Shown here: piece by piece, positions 7,538 through 22,739 of the stretch
Layout of the letters: the number at the start of each line of letters is the position of its first letter
Numbering within the stretch: the stretch's first letter is position 1
NCBI GenBank assembly: GCA_964466835.1
Contig: CAYXNV010000001.1
Span: forward strand, 7,870 to 71,869
Direction of reading: 5' to 3'
Length of the DNA stretch: 64,000 nt
Source: an uncultured Gammaproteobacteria bacterium
GTDB lineage: Bacteria; Patescibacteriota; Patescibacteriia; Patescibacteriales; UBA12465
Notes under the pieces: model-generated
What the model was told of the DNA's origin: nothing
What the model saw: only the letters and a program-made list of their open reading frames with translations
Database searches by the model: none
Made by a program: the position numbers and the translations under genes

Positions 7538-8002
7538 CTATTTAATCTTTTTTAAGTCTTTTTTCAGAAATACAAAGTGATAATTGGGGTCGTTATTGGT
7601 AGTATTGATTTTTGTAAGATAATAATTTCTTTTTAACATTAAGCAAATCATTTCCCTGGAAACATTGTATACTTTTACAGTTACTTCTTTGTACCCTTTT
7701 TTTGTGGCATACTTTTCGGTTAAGTTTAGGAGTTTAGTGGCTATTTTTTGCTTTCTATATTTTTTATCAACTCCTAAAACCCATAAATACCAAGAATCCT
7801 TTTGCGGGAAAGATATTAAATTACCGACTAAGCAATCATCTACTTTAGCTAAATATATTAAAGAATTTTTATTAATCTTTTTTTGATATTGTTTTAGAGA
7901 GTATGGTTCAGTTTGGTAAATTTTTTTGAAAATATGGTAGTTAAAAGAAACTATTTCTTCTAAATCGTTTTCATTTCCTTGTATTATTTTTATTTTTTCC
8001 AT
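7538..8002 (-). CDS. GNAT-family N-acetyltransferase
   Basis: This 154-aa protein carries the acetyl-CoA motif-A-like segment LGVDKKYRKQKIATKLL. Confidence 0.7.
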   Translation of the reverse strand: MEKIKIIQGNENDLEEIVSFNYHIFKKIYQTEPYSLKQYQKKINKNSLIYLAKVDDCLVGNLISFPQKDSWYLWVLGVDKKYRKQKIATKLLNLTEKYATKKGYKEVTVKVYNVSREMICLMLKRNYYLTKINTTNNDPNYHFVFLKKDLKKIK

Positions 8003-17433: not shown

Positions 17434-20172
17434 TTATTTTAATTCTCCCCAATTATTACCCTGACTTTGATCTACTATGATAGGAGTTTTCAATTTAATT
17501 ACTTCTTCCATGATTTTTTTTATTTTTTTACTATAAAAAGGAATCTTATCCTTTTTTATTTCAAAAATCAACTCATCATGAACTTGTAGTATCATTTTAA
17601 TTTCTTTTTCCTGATCAGCAATTAATTCGTTTACTTTTACCATTGCCATTTTTATTAAATCAGCTGCTGTCCCTTGGATAGGAGTATTAATAGCCATTCT
17701 TTCTGCTCCTTTTCTTACGGGAACAATATTAGAGTTGATTTCTGGTAAGGGCCGCTTTCTTCCAAACAGGGTGATAGCATAACCGTTTTTTTGTGCTTCT
17801 TTAACAAATTTATCCACCATTCTTTTTATGCCAGGGTAGATGGTAAAGTATTTTTTGATAAATTCATTAGCTTGCCAATAAGGGATAGATGCACTTTGAC
17901 TAAGACCGTGAGGCCCTTGTCCGTACAGAATGCCAAAATTAACTGCTTTAGCTTCTCGGCGCATATTTTTACTCACCTTATCTAATTTTACCCCATTTAT
18001 TTCAGCAGCGGTGGTAGAGTGAATATCTTCATTATTTTTAAAAGCAGCAATCATCTTTTTATCATTAGACATGTGAGCGGCCAAACGTAATTCAATTTGT
18101 GAGTAATCAAAGCCAACTAATTGATAATCCTTTTTGGCCACAAAAGCTTCTCTGATCTTTCTACCCTCATCGGTTTTAGTGGGAATATTTTGTAAATTAG
18201 GTTCGGTTGAAGATAGTCGTCCAGTAGCAGTGATAGTTTGGTTAAAATTACTATGAATTCGTTTGGTTTTAGAATTGATCATGGTTGGTAGGGCATTTAA
18301 ATAAGTGGTTTGAAGTTTGTTTAGCTCACGATATGATTGGATTAAAGAAATAATAGGGTGTAGTTCAAATAATTTAACTAATTCTTCTTCAGCGGTAGAA
18401 AAGCCAGTTTTAGTTTTCTTTATTCCTTCGGTAGGGATCTCCAATTTATCAAATAAAATTCCTTGAAGTTGTTTGGGGGAGTTGATATTAAATTTAGTTT
18501 TAGCTAGACGATATATGTCTTTTTCTAATTTATTAAGTTTAGTGCTTACTATTTTATTTAAATTAACAATTGGTTTACTACTAAAACCAATGCCACTGTT
18601 TTCCATTTTACCCAGAACTGTAATCAGAGGTATTTCTATTTTATTCAATAGATCAATTAAATTTTCAGTTTGGATTTTTTTCTTTAATATATTGACTAGA
18701 CGATTAGAGAAGTCAGCATCTTCACAGGCATATAAACTTAGTTTATCAGGATCTAATTCTTTAAAGTCTAAAGTTAATTGTTTCGGTTGACTGTCAGCTA
18801 AATTATTTTTATTAATTTTTTCAAAACCAAGCTCAGAAAAGACTAGAGAATCTAAATTGTGTTGGCGATTACTAGGATTGAGGAGATAGGAGGCGACCAT
18901 TGTATCAAAAGCTATGCCTTTTAATTCTATGTTCTGATTTTTCAATACTCGCCAATCAAATTTTAGATTGTGTCCATATTTTTTTATCTTGGGATTAGCT
19001 AAAATTGGGGCTAATTTTTTAAGCCAAGTTTTTTTAGCTAGCACAAAGTAGGCTTCACCTTTTTGCCAAGAAAAACTAATGCCCAAAAGTTCAACCGTAA
19101 TTGGGTCTAAGCCAGAAGTTTCTGTATCTAGAGTAAAGGCCTTTTGAATTTTTAATTTTTTTAAGAAAACATTAAATTTTTTATCATTATCAATTAATTG
19201 GTACTTAAAATCTTTTGCATTACGAGCAAATTTATCTTCTTTTTCTTCTTGACTATCAGGATTAGCTTTATCCATTCTATCTCTCAGTTCTTTTACTTTA
19301 TTTAATAGAGATTTAAAGTTTAGATCACTAAATATATTTAAAACTTTATCAACGGGGAAAGAGGCAAAGGCAGCTTCGGGCAGAGAAAATTTAAAAGCAA
19401 TTTTACGCTGGATGGTTGCTAGTTTTTTACTTAAGTAAACATTCTTTTTTGAGGTTTTTAACAATTCTGAAGTCCGGGGTTTTATTCTCTGGTCATTTTT
19501 AGCAACAGCCTTATAGATATTTTCAATATTTTTGAAATTAATTAATAACTCAATCGCTGTTTTCTCGCCAATACCTTTAGCGCCAGGAATATTATCACTA
19601 GGATCACCTCGTAGAGCCTTGTAGTCAATAATTTGTTCTGGACTTAAATTATATCTTTCTCCTACTTTATCTTCATCATAGAGGATGCTATCTGATAAAC
19701 CCCGGCTCATGGTGTATACTTTAGTTTTTTTATCTATTAATTGCAGGGTGTCAAGATCGCCAGTTATGATAATCCGCTCTAATTTTTTTTCTTCTTTAGT
19801 TTTTTCACAAATAGCACCAATCAAATCATCAGCTTCATAGCCACTTTTTTCAAAAATGGGAATATTAAAAGCTTTAACCACCTCTTTTACTAAAGGAATT
19901 TGTTCATATAGCTCATCAGGCGCTTTTGTTCTAGTGGCTTTATAATCTTCATATTCTTCATGGCGAAAAGTTGGACCAGCTTTATCCAAAGTCAAAACAA
20001 CGAATTCTGGTTTAAATTCGTTTAATGATTTTAACAGGAAAGAGGTAAAACCATAGACAGCGTTCACTAATTGTCCTTTGCGTGTCCTAAGAGTAGGAGG
20101 TAAAGCGTGAAAACTACGATGAATTAAGGCATTTCCGTCAATAATTATTAACTTTGGTTTAGTTTTAGACAT
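17434..20172 (-). CDS. polA: DNA polymerase I (5'-3' exo, 3'-5' exo-like and polymerase domains)
   Basis: This 912-aa protein contains LIIIDGNALIHRSFHA, DYSQIELRLAA and LQVHDELIFE. Confidence 0.95.
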   Translation of the reverse strand: MSKTKPKLIIIDGNALIHRSFHALPPTLRTRKGQLVNAVYGFTSFLLKSLNEFKPEFVVLTLDKAGPTFRHEEYEDYKATRTKAPDELYEQIPLVKEVVKAFNIPIFEKSGYEADDLIGAICEKTKEEKKLERIIITGDLDTLQLIDKKTKVYTMSRGLSDSILYDEDKVGERYNLSPEQIIDYKALRGDPSDNIPGAKGIGEKTAIELLINFKNIENIYKAVAKNDQRIKPRTSELLKTSKKNVYLSKKLATIQRKIAFKFSLPEAAFASFPVDKVLNIFSDLNFKSLLNKVKELRDRMDKANPDSQEEKEDKFARNAKDFKYQLIDNDKKFNVFLKKLKIQKAFTLDTETSGLDPITVELLGISFSWQKGEAYFVLAKKTWLKKLAPILANPKIKKYGHNLKFDWRVLKNQNIELKGIAFDTMVASYLLNPSNRQHNLDSLVFSELGFEKINKNNLADSQPKQLTLDFKELDPDKLSLYACEDADFSNRLVNILKKKIQTENLIDLLNKIEIPLITVLGKMENSGIGFSSKPIVNLNKIVSTKLNKLEKDIYRLAKTKFNINSPKQLQGILFDKLEIPTEGIKKTKTGFSTAEEELVKLFELHPIISLIQSYRELNKLQTTYLNALPTMINSKTKRIHSNFNQTITATGRLSSTEPNLQNIPTKTDEGRKIREAFVAKKDYQLVGFDYSQIELRLAAHMSNDKKMIAAFKNNEDIHSTTAAEINGVKLDKVSKNMRREAKAVNFGILYGQGPHGLSQSASIPYWQANEFIKKYFTIYPGIKRMVDKFVKEAQKNGYAITLFGRKRPLPEINSNIVPVRKGAERMAINTPIQGTAADLIKMAMVKVNELIADQEKEIKMILQVHDELIFEIKKDKIPFYSKKIKKIMEEVIKLKTPIIVDQSQGNNWGELK

Positions 20173-20241
20173 ATATTAATTTTATCATTTTTAGGGAGTG
20201 GGAGCAAAAGGAATTTATAAAAAATTATCATAAGATAAAAT

Positions 20242-20269
20242 AAAGGCGCCGAATAGGGGCGCCTTTTTT
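20242..20269. terminator. GC-rich terminator-like hairpin upstream of polA
   Basis: The sequence aaaGGCGCC-gaatagg-GGCGCCtttttt has T-runs on both strands. Confidence 0.5.
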
Positions 20270-20339
20270 ATACGCTTGCGCGTGGGAAGTTTTATTCACT
20301 CTTGTGAAAAACAAAAAATAGAAATTTGTCTTTACCTAA

Positions 20340-20508
20340 GTAGGCCATAACGTCCTTCTCCAGGTATCCATCTTTGATTTCAAAGGGGAGAAAACGTTAG
20401 CGTGGATACTCATTAAGGTTAACCATGCTTTTTGCCTGCAACCCTCTTCGCTTAGTTCAAGGCTGTCGAAACAACCAGGAAGGAGCCAAGGAGGGACAGG
20501 AAGCCTAC
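20340..20508. ncRNA. unassigned structured RNA candidate A (family not recognised)
   Basis: The segment is GC-enriched and ORF-free. A closing helix forms between 20340-45 and 20503-08. An 11-bp hairpin spans 20349-20398. Its loop (20364-70) is complementary to 20403-09, giving a possible pseudoknot. A second 16-bp arm spans 20435-20500. Confidence 0.45.
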
Positions 20509-20629
20509 AAAATAAAGATCTTAGAAAACAATAGATTGTCTCCATCACGATCTTGTTTTTGTAAAAGAAAATGAGTTTGTGTCGTTAAACGACAAATAGT
20601 CTAGCTACCTTGTAGCTTTTCTGTGAAAC

Positions 20630-20910
20630 TAGATAGGGTTGAGATTAAGTCGCCAAGTCCGTAAAACCAAAATTATCTTTATGGTTTTTCTCTTTTGCCT
20701 TTTTATGCAAGCAAATGGATGCGAAAACGAATCGCAAATGGTCGCTTTCGGTTTAGGCAGTAGAGTTAATGGATTTGACGGTATAATTGCGGCGAGCGCA
20801 TCTAATTCCACAGAAGGGAATAACAATGAACGAATATAGATCATAACCCCTCTGTTTTGGTGTAATTAAATTATACATAGAAATAATTAAAAGTCAATTA
20901 TCTTTATATA
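20630..20910. ncRNA. unassigned structured RNA candidate B (some RNase P-like motifs; not confirmed)
   Basis: The segment is GC-enriched. Helices form at 20663-69/20682-88, 20720-24/20732-36, 20788-91/20797-800 and 20810-18/20848-55. There is no credible ORF. Confidence 0.35.
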
Positions 20911-20916
20911 AAAGAA

Positions 20917-20936
20917 GCGCCTCAAATATGAGGCGC
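20917..20936. terminator. GC-rich terminator-like hairpin
   Basis: The stem-loop is GCGCCTCA-aata-TGAGGCGC. On the minus strand it is followed by ttcttttatat. On the plus strand it is followed by ctttaggtttgtt. Confidence 0.5.
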
Positions 20937-21012
20937 CTTTAGGTTTGTTAGATCTTTTTGTAAGTTTTTTAAAAAGATAATTTCCGCAATAGTCGCGGTA
21001 GGGGCATTTTAG

Positions 21013-21187
21013 TTCTGTTTACCAGAATCGGGCTTATAGTCTGTCACTCTATCAAGCCCTCAAGCTAGCCGAATTTAGTTTTGCGGCTAGAGTTGAGTGA
21101 TGATCCGGCAAATACCAGCCCATTCATGCAATTGTTTTTTTGGTGAAATAGTTTTACGGGCAGGTAGCCTATCAATGGTAAACAGAA
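21013..21187. ncRNA. unassigned structured RNA candidate C (or MITE-like element)
   Basis: A perfect 12-bp closing helix forms between 21013-24 and 21176-87. Nested helices lie at 21030-34/21166-70, 21065-71/21084-90 and 21114-21/21158-65. Confidence 0.45.
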
Positions 21188-21347
21188 GGTTTCGGGCTCC
21201 CTTAAAAACGGGAATGGTAAAGTACTATTCATGATCCTCCTGTTTGATTATGCTTCTATATTGGCAAATTATTCAAAAAAAGTCAATATTAGGAGTTTAT
21301 TTAACATTTCTTTGTTTTCTGGTAGAATTAGAGGGAAGATAAAATAT

Positions 21348-22337
21348 ATGAAAAAAGTAGGATTATTTTTTGGCGGATTAAGTAATGAAGCTGAAGTTTC
21401 AATTATGTCCGCTAAAAATATAGTTAAAAGTTTTGATTATAAAAAATATAAATTAGTCTTAATCTATTGGCATAAGCAAGATGGTTATTTTTATAGAGTA
21501 AAGAATATTAATAATTTGAAGGTTGTTAAAAAAGATAGAATTCAAATTGAAAATTTTTCTAAAATTTTTGATGTTGCCCTATTAATGACTCATGGCCGTT
21601 ATGGTGAAGATGGTGTTTTGCAAGCAATGTTAGAGGGCCAGGGGATTAAATATTGTGGTTGTCGTGTTTTAAGTTCAGCTGTTTGCATGGACAAAGGAGT
21701 TTTTAAAGATTTATTAATTTCTAAAAATATCAGACAAACTAAATACTCAGTTTTGGATTATAAAAAATTTAGTGAAAGAGAAATACAAGCAGAAAAGAGT
21801 AGAGTTAGAAAGAATTTTAAACTTCCGTTATATGTTAAGCCGGCTAATTCAGGCTCTTCGGTTGGCATAAGTAAAGTAGAGAAGTATAAAGATTTAGATT
21901 CAGGTATTAAGCTAGCTTTGAAGCATGATTCTAAAATTGTAATTGAAGAAGGTTTTATAAATGCTAGAGAGATAGAGGTGGCGGTGTTAGGGAATAATAA
22001 ATTAAGAATTTCTAAGCCTGGTGAATTGAAATTAGTTAAAGATTTTTATAATTACGATGATAAATATAAATTAGGACAAGCCCAAAGCATTATTCCTGCT
22101 AAATTAACTCCTGCTCAAGTCAAAGAAATACATAAAATTGCCAAAGAAGCTTATCAGCTTTGTAATTGTCAGGGATTTGCTCGAATAGATTTTTTTGTTC
22201 ATCGAAATAAAATATATCTTAACGAAATTAATACTTTGCCCGGCTTCACTGATATCTCTATGTATCCAATGTTGATGATGAGTACGGGTATGAGTTACAA
22301 AGAACTAATTAATGCGATTATAAAGCTGGGATATTAA
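21348..22337 (+). CDS. ddl: D-alanine--D-alanine ligase
   Basis: The start MKKVGLFFGGLSNEAEVS is preceded by the SD gagggaag. Further motifs are HGRYGEDGVLQ and EINTLPGFT. The track's start at 21231 is an unsupported extension. Confidence 0.9.
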   Translation: MKKVGLFFGGLSNEAEVSIMSAKNIVKSFDYKKYKLVLIYWHKQDGYFYRVKNINNLKVVKKDRIQIENFSKIFDVALLMTHGRYGEDGVLQAMLEGQGIKYCGCRVLSSAVCMDKGVFKDLLISKNIRQTKYSVLDYKKFSEREIQAEKSRVRKNFKLPLYVKPANSGSSVGISKVEKYKDLDSGIKLALKHDSKIVIEEGFINAREIEVAVLGNNKLRISKPGELKLVKDFYNYDDKYKLGQAQSIIPAKLTPAQVKEIHKIAKEAYQLCNCQGFARIDFFVHRNKIYLNEINTLPGFTDISMYPMLMMSTGMSYKELINAIIKLGY

Positions 22338-22392: not shown

Positions 22393-22466
22393 TGGACCAT
22401 AAGGGACTCGAACCCTTGACCCCCTGCTTGCAAAGCAGGTGCTCTAGCCAACTGAGCTAATGGCCC
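22393..22466 (-). tRNA. tRNA-Ala (anticodon TGC)
   Basis: The reverse complement is gggccattagctcagttggctagagc...ttTGCaa... A G3-U70 pair is present. Confidence 0.9.
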
Positions 22467-22490: not shown

Positions 22491-22739
22491 CTATTTATTG
22501 TATTTGAAAAGAGGACTTAGTAGCCATTCGCCAAAGGCTGATCCACTGCCGGTCATTACAATAATTCCGATGACAATGAGTAGAATACCAACAATTTTAT
22601 AACCTAAACGTGAACCACCTTCAGATCCTAGTTTATCCTCAAACCAACCAATCCGACCGAAGTTTTGCAAAAACCATTCGGTCTTAATTACTAGGAAGCA
22701 ACCAGCCACGGTCATTAATATCCCTATAAATATATTCAT
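22491..22739 (-). CDS. small two-TM membrane protein (82 aa)
   Basis: It has two hydrophobic helices. Its start is 1 nt from the stop of the upstream LysM/M23 gene. Confidence 0.55.
   Translation of the reverse strand: MNIFIGILMTVAGCFLVIKTEWFLQNFGRIGWFEDKLGSEGGSRLGYKIVGILLIVIGIIVMTGSGSAFGEWLLSPLFKYNK

Follow-up and report, generated by a model that had tools for sequence, protein, structure and literature searches.

A candidate Shine-Dalgarno switch in a putative small-ORF mRNA encoded divergently from ddl in a Patescibacteria lineage

Background

Is the 175-nt element that lies between polA and ddl in a Patescibacteria genome an RNA gene, a leader of ddl or a mobile repeat, or does it belong to something else? 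The element occupies positions 21013-21187 of a 64,000-nt stretch of contig CAYXNV010000001.1 (assembly GCA_964466835.1, forward-strand positions 7,870 to 71,869); this whole stretch is referred to as the window, and all coordinates are its own. A preliminary description of the locus had offered three readings: a minus-strand small RNA (sRNA) gene with a terminator, a plus-strand leader of ddl, and a MITE (miniature inverted-repeat transposable element) bounded by the arms of the closing helix. Here we argue that the element is probably the folded core of a ~340-nt minus-strand mRNA for an orphan 55-codon gene, in which a Shine-Dalgarno (SD) sequence, an anti-SD and an anti-anti-SD would make up a switch.

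The window has a G+C content of 33%, and the nearest matches of ddl, polA and their neighbours are found in metagenome-assembled genomes of Patescibacteria (candidate phyla radiation), e.g. Falkowbacteria and Moranbacteria. The element sits within the 1176 nt that separate polA (17434-20172, minus strand) from ddl (ATG at 21348, plus strand). In the identical public contig no gene at all has been called in this gap.

Results

Fold of the element

The arms of the element, TTCTGTTTACCA (21013-21024) and TGGTAAACAGAA (21176-21187), are exact reverse complements and give the perfect 12-bp closing helix that had been claimed for them, called P1 below. Taken alone such a repeat is unremarkable, because inverted repeats of 12 nt or more, with arms no further than 200 nt apart, occur 45 times in the AT-rich window; the significance of the element rests on the whole fold and on the comparative data. 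The minimum free energy (MFE) of 21013-21187 is -59.4 kcal/mol on the plus strand and -56.7 kcal/mol on the minus strand (z = -5.3 and -5.6, respectively), and none of 200 dinucleotide shuffles was as stable. Two internal helices of the preliminary description were found again in the MFE fold, namely the CTAGCCG/CGGCTAG hairpin (21065-71/21084-90), with a TCAA/TTGA extension, and the ACCAGCCC/GGGCAGGT pairing, which takes the form of TACC:GGTA plus GCCC:GGGC. A third helix was replaced: rather than GGGCT (21030-34) pairing with AGCCT (21166-70), GGGCTT (21030-35) forms a local hairpin with AAGCCC (21054-59). This makes the junction four-way, composed of P1 and the arms P2, P3 and P4, and not three-way as it was first drawn.

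Anatomy of the minus-strand unit

Read on the minus strand, the element forms part of an ordered set of gene signals. The promoter-like region (21258-21286), read from the sequence, has a -35 TTGACT (21286-21281), a 17-nt spacer and an extended -10 TGc-CAATAT (21266-21258); since the -10 hexamer matches the consensus at three of six positions, we infer this promoter rather than assign it outright. The SD region CAAACAGGAGGA (21235-21246; the "S" strand, able to pair with the 5' arm of P1) has the core AGGAGG 5 nt 5' of an ATG. The minus strand from 21246 to 21230 reads caaacAGGAGGatcATG, and there, with its ATG at 21232, starts a 55-codon open reading frame (ORF; 21065-21232, product MNSTLPFPFLREPETFCLPLIGYLPVKLFHQKNNCMNGLVFAGSSLNSSRKTKFG), which ends with a TAG (21067-21065) inside hairpin P3.

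Two stretches of this ORF resemble anti-SD sequences. The first, CCAUUCCCGUUU (21206-21217), covers codons 6-9 (P-F-P-F) and is paired with the SD in the full-transcript fold. The second is the CCUUCUGUUU part of the P1 5' arm, ACC-UUCUGUUUACCA (21176-21190), which spans codons 15-19 (T-F-C-L-P) and whose core, UUC UGU UUA CCA, is codons 16-19 (F-C-L-P). P2 (21101-21174) is a long irregular hairpin inside the ORF and includes the ACCAGCCC/GGGCAGGT pairing, P3 (UCAA..CUAGCCG / CGGCUAG..UUGA; 21060-21096) holds the end of the ORF and its stop codon, and P4 (GGGCUUG...UAAGCCC; 21030-21059) directly follows the stop codon. The 3' arm of P1, UGGUAAACAGAA (21013-21024), proposed as the anti-anti-SD, lies in the 3' untranslated region (UTR), 41 nt past the stop codon.

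Downstream of P1 there are two small 3'-UTR hairpins (20952-20998), CCGCGAcuaUUGCGG (20998-20984) and AUCUUUUU...AAAAAGAU (20978-20952), and an intrinsic terminator (20905-20938), whose 10-bp stem with six G-C pairs (20938-20915) is followed by CUUUUAUAUA. Both the hairpin at 20998-20984 and the terminator with its U-tract had been noticed before. The earlier proposal of a terminated minus-strand transcript agrees with the promoter, terminator and strand, all of which are conserved in relatives; its other half, an sRNA gene, overlooked the AGGAGG-N5-ATG and the 55-codon ORF. As codons 16-19 of this ORF are the 5' arm itself, a structured small-ORF mRNA is a better description of the unit than a pure sRNA gene.

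Related units

Relatives were sought as contigs reached via ddl homologues of 67-75% identity, which gave five further units of this kind (A-type) from four genomes. The A-type set comprises six units from five genomes: the window, L013, L014_1, L014_2, L026 and L028. In the relatives, all Patescibacteria, the units occupy the same site, divergent from ddl; L026 and L028 carry one each and L014 two in tandem. The closest relative, L013 (FLOH01000015), has a 75% identical ddl and a homologous unit in a 444-nt polA-ddl gap (nhmmer E = 5e-15). Each unit in the relatives has an SD, an ATG, an ORF of 50-76 codons and a terminator, which in L013 and L026 is at the equivalent position, and a TTGAC[T/A] is kept in L013, L014, L026 and L028. 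A promoter scan called TTGACT-16-(TG)TAAGAT in L013 and TTGACT-16-(TG)TAATAT in L026. A scan of genome contigs by ddl yielded 11 loci, none with an A-type unit and one (L001) with a unit of another type, B, described below. A metagenome scan with the peptide-degenerate pattern MN..LPFP-gap-FCLP returned only the known FLOH01000015 contig and five low-complexity chance matches.

Conservation of the closing helix

P1 is present in the whole-transcript MFE fold of four of the six units (window, L013, L026 and L014_1) and in the isolated fold of L014_2; among the related units it is kept with compensatory changes in four of five. Covariation was scored over 13 pairs in an alignment of five units registered by hand. 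In this alignment 86% of P1 cells are paired, compared with 39-46% after a shift of the partner by 1-3 columns, and five pairs are changed on both sides, e.g. A-U to G-C twice and U-A to C-G twice. In L013 the coding arm differs by two synonymous changes (TTA to TTG, CCA to CCG), each with its counterpart in the 3' UTR arm. With a naive MAFFT alignment of three units, RNAalifold recovered both P1 and P4. Judged from these sequences, the closing helix is under selection.

Within the junction, P4 is the best-conserved helix, with counterparts GGGCUUGAU/AUCAAGCCC in L026 and GGGCUUGG/CCAAGCCC in L013 and covariation among the relatives. The sequence of P2 is not conserved in the relatives, though L013 and L026 also have a long hairpin next to the 5' arm.

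Alternative pairing of the 5' arm

The 5' arm has a second possible partner. In the window the SD region AAACAGGAGG is complementary to CCUUCUGUUU of the 5' arm, with a duplex of 10 bp and -13.7 kcal/mol, and the corresponding sequences are AACAGAAGG and CCUUCUGUU in L013, AAACGGAAG and CUUCCGUUU in L026, and ACAGAAAGG and CCUUUCUGU in L014_2, while L014_1 and L028 are paired at 10 of 12 positions each. A helix of 9-10 bp can be formed in all six units. Over 11 pairs, again in a hand-registered alignment, 87% of cells are paired versus 42-64% when slid, and four pairs are changed on both sides. One change in L026 runs through all three strands, with A to G in the SD, U to C in the 5' arm (a Cys to Arg codon) and A to G in the 3' arm; the pairing is preserved and the amino acid is not. 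The covariation analysis that the preliminary description had called for thus gave compensatory changes in the hand-registered P1 and SD:5'-arm helices and the RNAalifold recovery of P1 and P4.

As a control, the duplex between the SD and downstream sequence was compared with the 25 long-ORF starts of the window. That of the unit, -15.6 kcal/mol, is stronger than all of them (mean -8.8 kcal/mol, sd 2.4, minimum -13.2).

Partition-function calculations predict that in the nascent RNA, truncated just past the 5' arm, the SD pairs with this arm in five of the six units (p = 0.83-1.0). In the full-length RNA the 5' arm is predicted to pair downstream in four of the six (p = 0.70-0.95), and the SD to be either free (unpaired p = 0.15-0.32) or paired locally and less strongly with UUCCC in the F-P codons. 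For the full-length RNA of the window, pairing of the SD with the region between the ATG and the 5' arm has p = 0.54.

The 3' arm and its following bases (21013-21030, minus strand, CUGGUAAACAGAACUAAAAUG) resemble the unit's own SD-to-ATG region, AAACAGGAGGAUCAUG, and the anti-anti-SD may have arisen from the ribosome-binding site (RBS) of a lost tandem copy. The UACCA/UGGUA part of P1 is specific to the 3' arm.

Evidence on coding

In all six A-type units the frame that starts at the SD-spaced ATG runs for 50-76 codons without a stop, and over the same span frames +1 and +2 contain 1-7 stops each. The chance of such an open frame is 0.014-0.11 per unit. Because the interiors of the units are too diverged to align and the frame is still open, selection for an open frame is indicated. 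In every unit the stop codon stands just 5' of the 3' arm, so the helix encloses the ORF. A paralogous ORF of the B-type unit, B1, differs between L001 and L018 at 15, 7 and 20 sites of the first, second and third codon position, with 13 synonymous codons in frame versus 7 and 2 out of frame. As regards variation within the species, from which a ratio of non-synonymous to synonymous change (dN/dS) might be derived, the duplicate contigs are identical.

The 55-aa product had no match in Pfam, NCBIfam, PHROGs or PADLOC. By its sequence it appears to be an orphan, fast-evolving protein of a Patescibacteria lineage. The F-P-S/F and F-C-L-P motifs of these small ORFs coincide with the pyrimidine-rich, SD-complementary stretches (21206-21217 and 21176-21190 in the window; 20809-20822 in the B-type unit), and their conservation as amino acids may reflect RNA pairing.

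The neighbouring B-type unit

A second unannotated unit is located at 20242-20897 on the minus strand. It has a promoter TTGACT-16-TATAAT (20897-20870), an SD and an ATG at 20844. Its first ORF, B1, has 71 codons and stops at 20629; another, of about 70 codons, spans 20548-20336, and the terminator is at 20266-20242. The unit is homologous to L001 3406-3948 and L018/19 2378-2938. In the region 20150-20950 no Rfam match was obtained at E up to 10 beyond chance-level terminator look-alikes. Its F-P-S codons are predicted to pair with its own SD or, alternatively, with a segment just past the B1 stop codon. The arms of this helix are UUCUGUGGAAUUAG/CUAGUUUCACAGAA in the window and UUCUAUUGAGAG/CUCUCAAUAGAA in L018, and 5 of the 14 pairs are compensatory. 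By its predicted pairings the B-type unit repeats the SD, anti-SD and long-range-helix design of the A-type with unrelated arm sequences.

Turnover at the ddl site and other features

L001 and L018 carry a B-type unit in place of the A-type, and the window's own B-type unit is that at 20897-20242. L030 and L032 have unrelated small genes (112 and 88 aa) with hydrophobic N-termini, L027 has three similar GGCGC...GCGCC hairpins, and L029 only 90 nt and no unit. Given these varied inserts, the site divergent from ddl is, as comparison of the relatives indicates (L001, L013, L014, L016, L018, L026-L030 and L032), a hot spot for small genes whose content turns over.

Between the element and ddl, the plus strand carries an extended -10 promoter of ddl, TTAACA-16-TG-TAGAAT (21301-21328), which relatives have kept. 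The polA promoter, TTGCTC-17-(TGa)TAAAAT (20172-20240, minus strand), is ~6 nt from the ATG with no SD and is conserved in L013, L026, L027, L028 and L029, which suggests that polA mRNA is leaderless in this lineage. The polA of the window is intact (912 aa, 17434-20172). The public Logan contig L012 (1-1825) equals the window across the intergenic region and has polA split there into genes of 758 and 140 aa; one of the two sequences is probably wrong here, through an error of assembly or consensus. A tRNA gene directly 3' of ddl (22393-22466, minus strand) and a conserved 82-aa ORF upstream of a LysM-M23 peptidase gene (22491-22739, minus strand), a putative gene also present in L013, L014 and L026, complete the surroundings.

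Discussion

Proposed mechanism

In the mRNA that we favour, the 12-bp helix would pair codons 16-19 (UUCUGUUUACCA) with a 3'-UTR segment and enclose the rest of the ORF. In the nascent RNA the 5' arm, acting as anti-SD, would pair with the SD and block initiation. Once the 3' arm, the anti-anti-SD, had been transcribed, the more stable P1 would capture the 5' arm, and the SD would then be free or in a weaker local hairpin with the F-P codons. Translation would in this way be limited to completed, 3'-intact transcripts, or otherwise be tightly gated. This scheme supposes that the unit is transcribed and translated, that the switch runs in this direction and, for the gene to matter through its product, that the protein has some function.

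Several observations weigh against this account. Its hand-registered alignments, for P1 and for the SD:5'-arm helix, were fitted to the helices that they are used to assess, and they come from only six units in five genomes. L028 shows no clear P1, and the full-length ensemble of L014_2 is divided between both states. The SD stays mostly paired in the full-length prediction, hence the "on" state is on only in a relative sense. The -10 hexamer of the window unit is weak. With respect to the peptide, no homologues of the 55-aa protein beyond the family's own two called genes were retrieved by a word-indexed search of 5.8 billion proteins and a full HMMER search of 1.84 billion representatives. 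The C-terminal parts of the A-type proteins are unrelated to one another and the net charge of the homologous proteins ranges from -11 to +6. The only shared peptide motifs, FP[SF][LI] and [FI][CRF]LP, fall exactly on the anti-SD stretches; what looks like a "conserved peptide" may therefore reflect a constraint on the RNA, and the protein itself may be functionless.

Alternative explanations

These points on the peptide lead to the serious rival, which we nevertheless consider unlikely: a purely non-coding, structured minus-strand sRNA, in which the SD-like sequence, the ATG and the ORF would be incidental or a decoy, and UUCCC and CCUUCUGU would act in trans on the RBS of other mRNAs, as C-rich sRNAs of low-GC bacteria do. 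The strong minus-strand fold (z = -5.6) with its covarying helices suits such an RNA, as do a predicted protein with neither homologues nor conserved properties, sole "peptide motifs" that are anti-SD-like RNA stretches, a Cys-to-Arg codon change tolerated while pairing was kept, and an ORF that gene callers skipped both in the window's own contig and in L013. Less easily reconciled with it are the properly spaced SD, ATG and 50-76-codon frame in all six diverged units, next to stop-rich other frames, the stop codon that always comes just before the 3' arm, and the codon-position bias of the paralogous B1 ORF; the pyrimidine stretches, besides, are predicted in stems and not in loops.

A structured small-ORF mRNA could also be the toxin mRNA of a type I toxin-antitoxin system, in which SD sequestration and an as yet unrecognised antisense RNA would keep a toxic peptide in check. 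We regard this as improbable, and membership in such systems is not supported. The unit does have a small ORF (usually below ~60 codons in type I systems) with its own SD, on a short monocistronic transcript with a 3' terminator. It also has an ORF-embedded hairpin (PMC8594479, PMC6733600), and SD sequestration by a cis anti-SD with a long-distance interaction (T1TAdb descriptors, PMC8594479) is indicated by prediction and covariation, although with a polarity different from that of hok. Tandem copies, variable presence in an intergenic hot spot and a fast-evolving, orphan ORF are further likenesses. The peptide is not of the hydrophobic, membrane-targeting kind, however: over 19 residues its Kyte-Doolittle mean peaks at 0.6-1.0 across the six homologues, versus 2.2-2.5 in Hok, TisB and Fst. 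Consensus scans, which give weak evidence, predicted no antisense (plus-strand) promoter or terminator inside the unit of the window, L013 or L026. PADLOC had no match, and the predicted effect of the long-range helix is to free the SD from its anti-SD, not to lock it.

That the element is a plus-strand cis-regulatory leader or riboswitch of ddl, as the preliminary description had allowed, is very improbable. The ddl ATG at 21348 is indeed 161 nt from the element, close to the ~160 nt given before, the plus-strand fold is stable (z = -5.3) and the units always adjoin ddl in relatives, but the conserved ddl promoter at 21301-21328 comes between the element and ddl, which argues against a leader, and no plus-strand promoter was predicted upstream of the element. 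In L013 the z is only -3.1 on the plus strand against -4.6 on the minus strand, and some ddl relatives have no unit or unrelated inserts. The Rfam check proposed at the outset brought no family for the element: at the gathering threshold the whole window gave only tRNAs, as did the related loci, and at E up to 10 the region 20850-21350 gave only chance-level matches, on the terminator region. The junction or aptamer nucleotides expected of a riboswitch are not conserved, the interior being unalignable among the window, L013 and L026 except for P4.

Least credible of all is a MITE-like element with the 12-bp arms as terminal inverted repeats: a perfect 12-bp repeat and a presence that varies at the locus among relatives are what it would predict, but the copy-number check that had been suggested for it, run by blastn within the 64-kb window together with nhmmer and a 12-mer search with one mismatch, found a single copy, an arm-gap-arm pattern had no match in viral contigs nor blastn in phages or plasmids, the absence of a target-site duplication was borne out (no direct repeat flanks 21013 and 21187; ...ttttag / ggtttc...), and diverged homologues occupy the same locus with arm complementarity kept by compensatory changes, one arm being coding.

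Other candidates were set aside. A leader-peptide transcription attenuator was rejected, as the stop at 21065 is 127 nt from the terminator stem at 20938 and the downstream units have promoters of their own, at 20897-20870 for the B-type unit and TTGCTC-17-TAAAAT directly 5' of the ATG for polA. A leader or attenuator of polA was likewise discarded, with a strong terminator and the separate, conserved polA promoter abutting the ATG in between. A retron msr-msd, attC, omega-RNA/TnpB right end, 6S, SRP or RNase P RNA was dropped: no reverse transcriptase, integrase or TnpB is encoded next to the element, Rfam had no match, and the conserved motifs of these RNAs do not fit.

Comparison with known systems

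The small-ORF mRNA that we prefer can be compared with several gated messages. In the timP mRNA of the enterobacterial timPR system, a long-range intramolecular interaction is reported to destabilise the RBS-sequestering stem, and an alternative pairing to lock the mRNA off (PMC13000454). This purely structural switch is the closest match to the logic predicted here, where the 5' arm:3' arm helix would compete with SD:5' arm. The A-type switch may follow timP-like logic, in that its long-range helix is predicted to draw the anti-SD off the SD. There is no homology in sequence or structure; here the anti-SD is in codons 15-19, the competitor is in the 3' UTR and the ORF is enclosed. By sequence and predicted folds, moreover, this unit shows no 5'-UTR pseudoknot, lacks a hydrophobic peptide and yielded no antitoxin RNA.

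In hok mRNA, with its tac/fbi fold-back and its ucb and dcb boxes, a 5'-3' long-distance helix sets the partner of the anti-SD, and metastable nascent structure prevents co-transcriptional translation (PMC9841398). Both are small ORFs in highly folded mRNAs in which a long-distance helix decides the partner of the anti-SD. The hok helix, however, keeps the full-length mRNA off until 3' trimming turns it on, and here the opposite polarity is predicted; the unit has no mok-like leader ORF and no Sok-like antisense RNA, and its peptide is not a membrane peptide. For aapA1 and aapA3 of Helicobacter pylori, a succession of hairpins that sequester the SD, including one within the ORF, has been proposed to arise as transcription proceeds (PMC6733600, PMC5416894); this may be set beside our two anti-SD stretches within the first 20 codons. 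Metastable and long-distance structures of the hok and aapA kind resemble the predicted A-type folds (PMC9841398, PMC6733600, PMC8594479). AapA peptides, in turn, are ~30 aa long and toxic and the IsoA antisense RNA is essential; no such features were found here.

Translational riboswitch platforms share with the unit three mutually exclusive strands and a closing helix round a multi-helix junction that sets access to the SD. The order is reversed here, with the junction downstream of the start codon and inside the ORF, and there is no Rfam match; no aptamer is evident, because the junction interior is not conserved. Dual-function sRNAs of the RNAIII/hld type are likewise structured, with long-range closing helices and pyrimidine-rich anti-SD motifs, and encode a small peptide. 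The motifs of our unit are instead predicted in stems, and there is neither homology nor any known trans target.

Conclusions

A wider proposal, which we put forward tentatively and would expect to fail rather than hold, is that the A- and B-type units divergent from ddl form a lineage-specific Patescibacteria family of "self-licensing" small-ORF mRNAs. The ORF-enclosing helix would serve as an anti-anti-SD, and the RBS would be held by an in-ORF anti-SD until the 3' end is complete and intact; the FPS and FCLP motifs would be by-products of pairing and the peptides near neutral or rapidly evolving effectors.

Almost nothing is known of post-transcriptional control in bacteria of the candidate phyla radiation, whose tiny genomes have few regulators and many orphan small ORFs. 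Even if the unit were purely non-coding, it would be a new conserved structured RNA absent from Rfam. If the small-ORF mRNA is real, it would provide a compact and testable mRNA switch, independent of protein and ligand, whose parts are defined by three-way covariation. It would also illustrate how RNA pairing can give rise to apparent "conserved peptide motifs" in small ORFs, a point of importance for the annotation of small proteins, and it would carry timP-, hok- and aapA-style gating outside both the classical type I toxins and the well-studied phyla.

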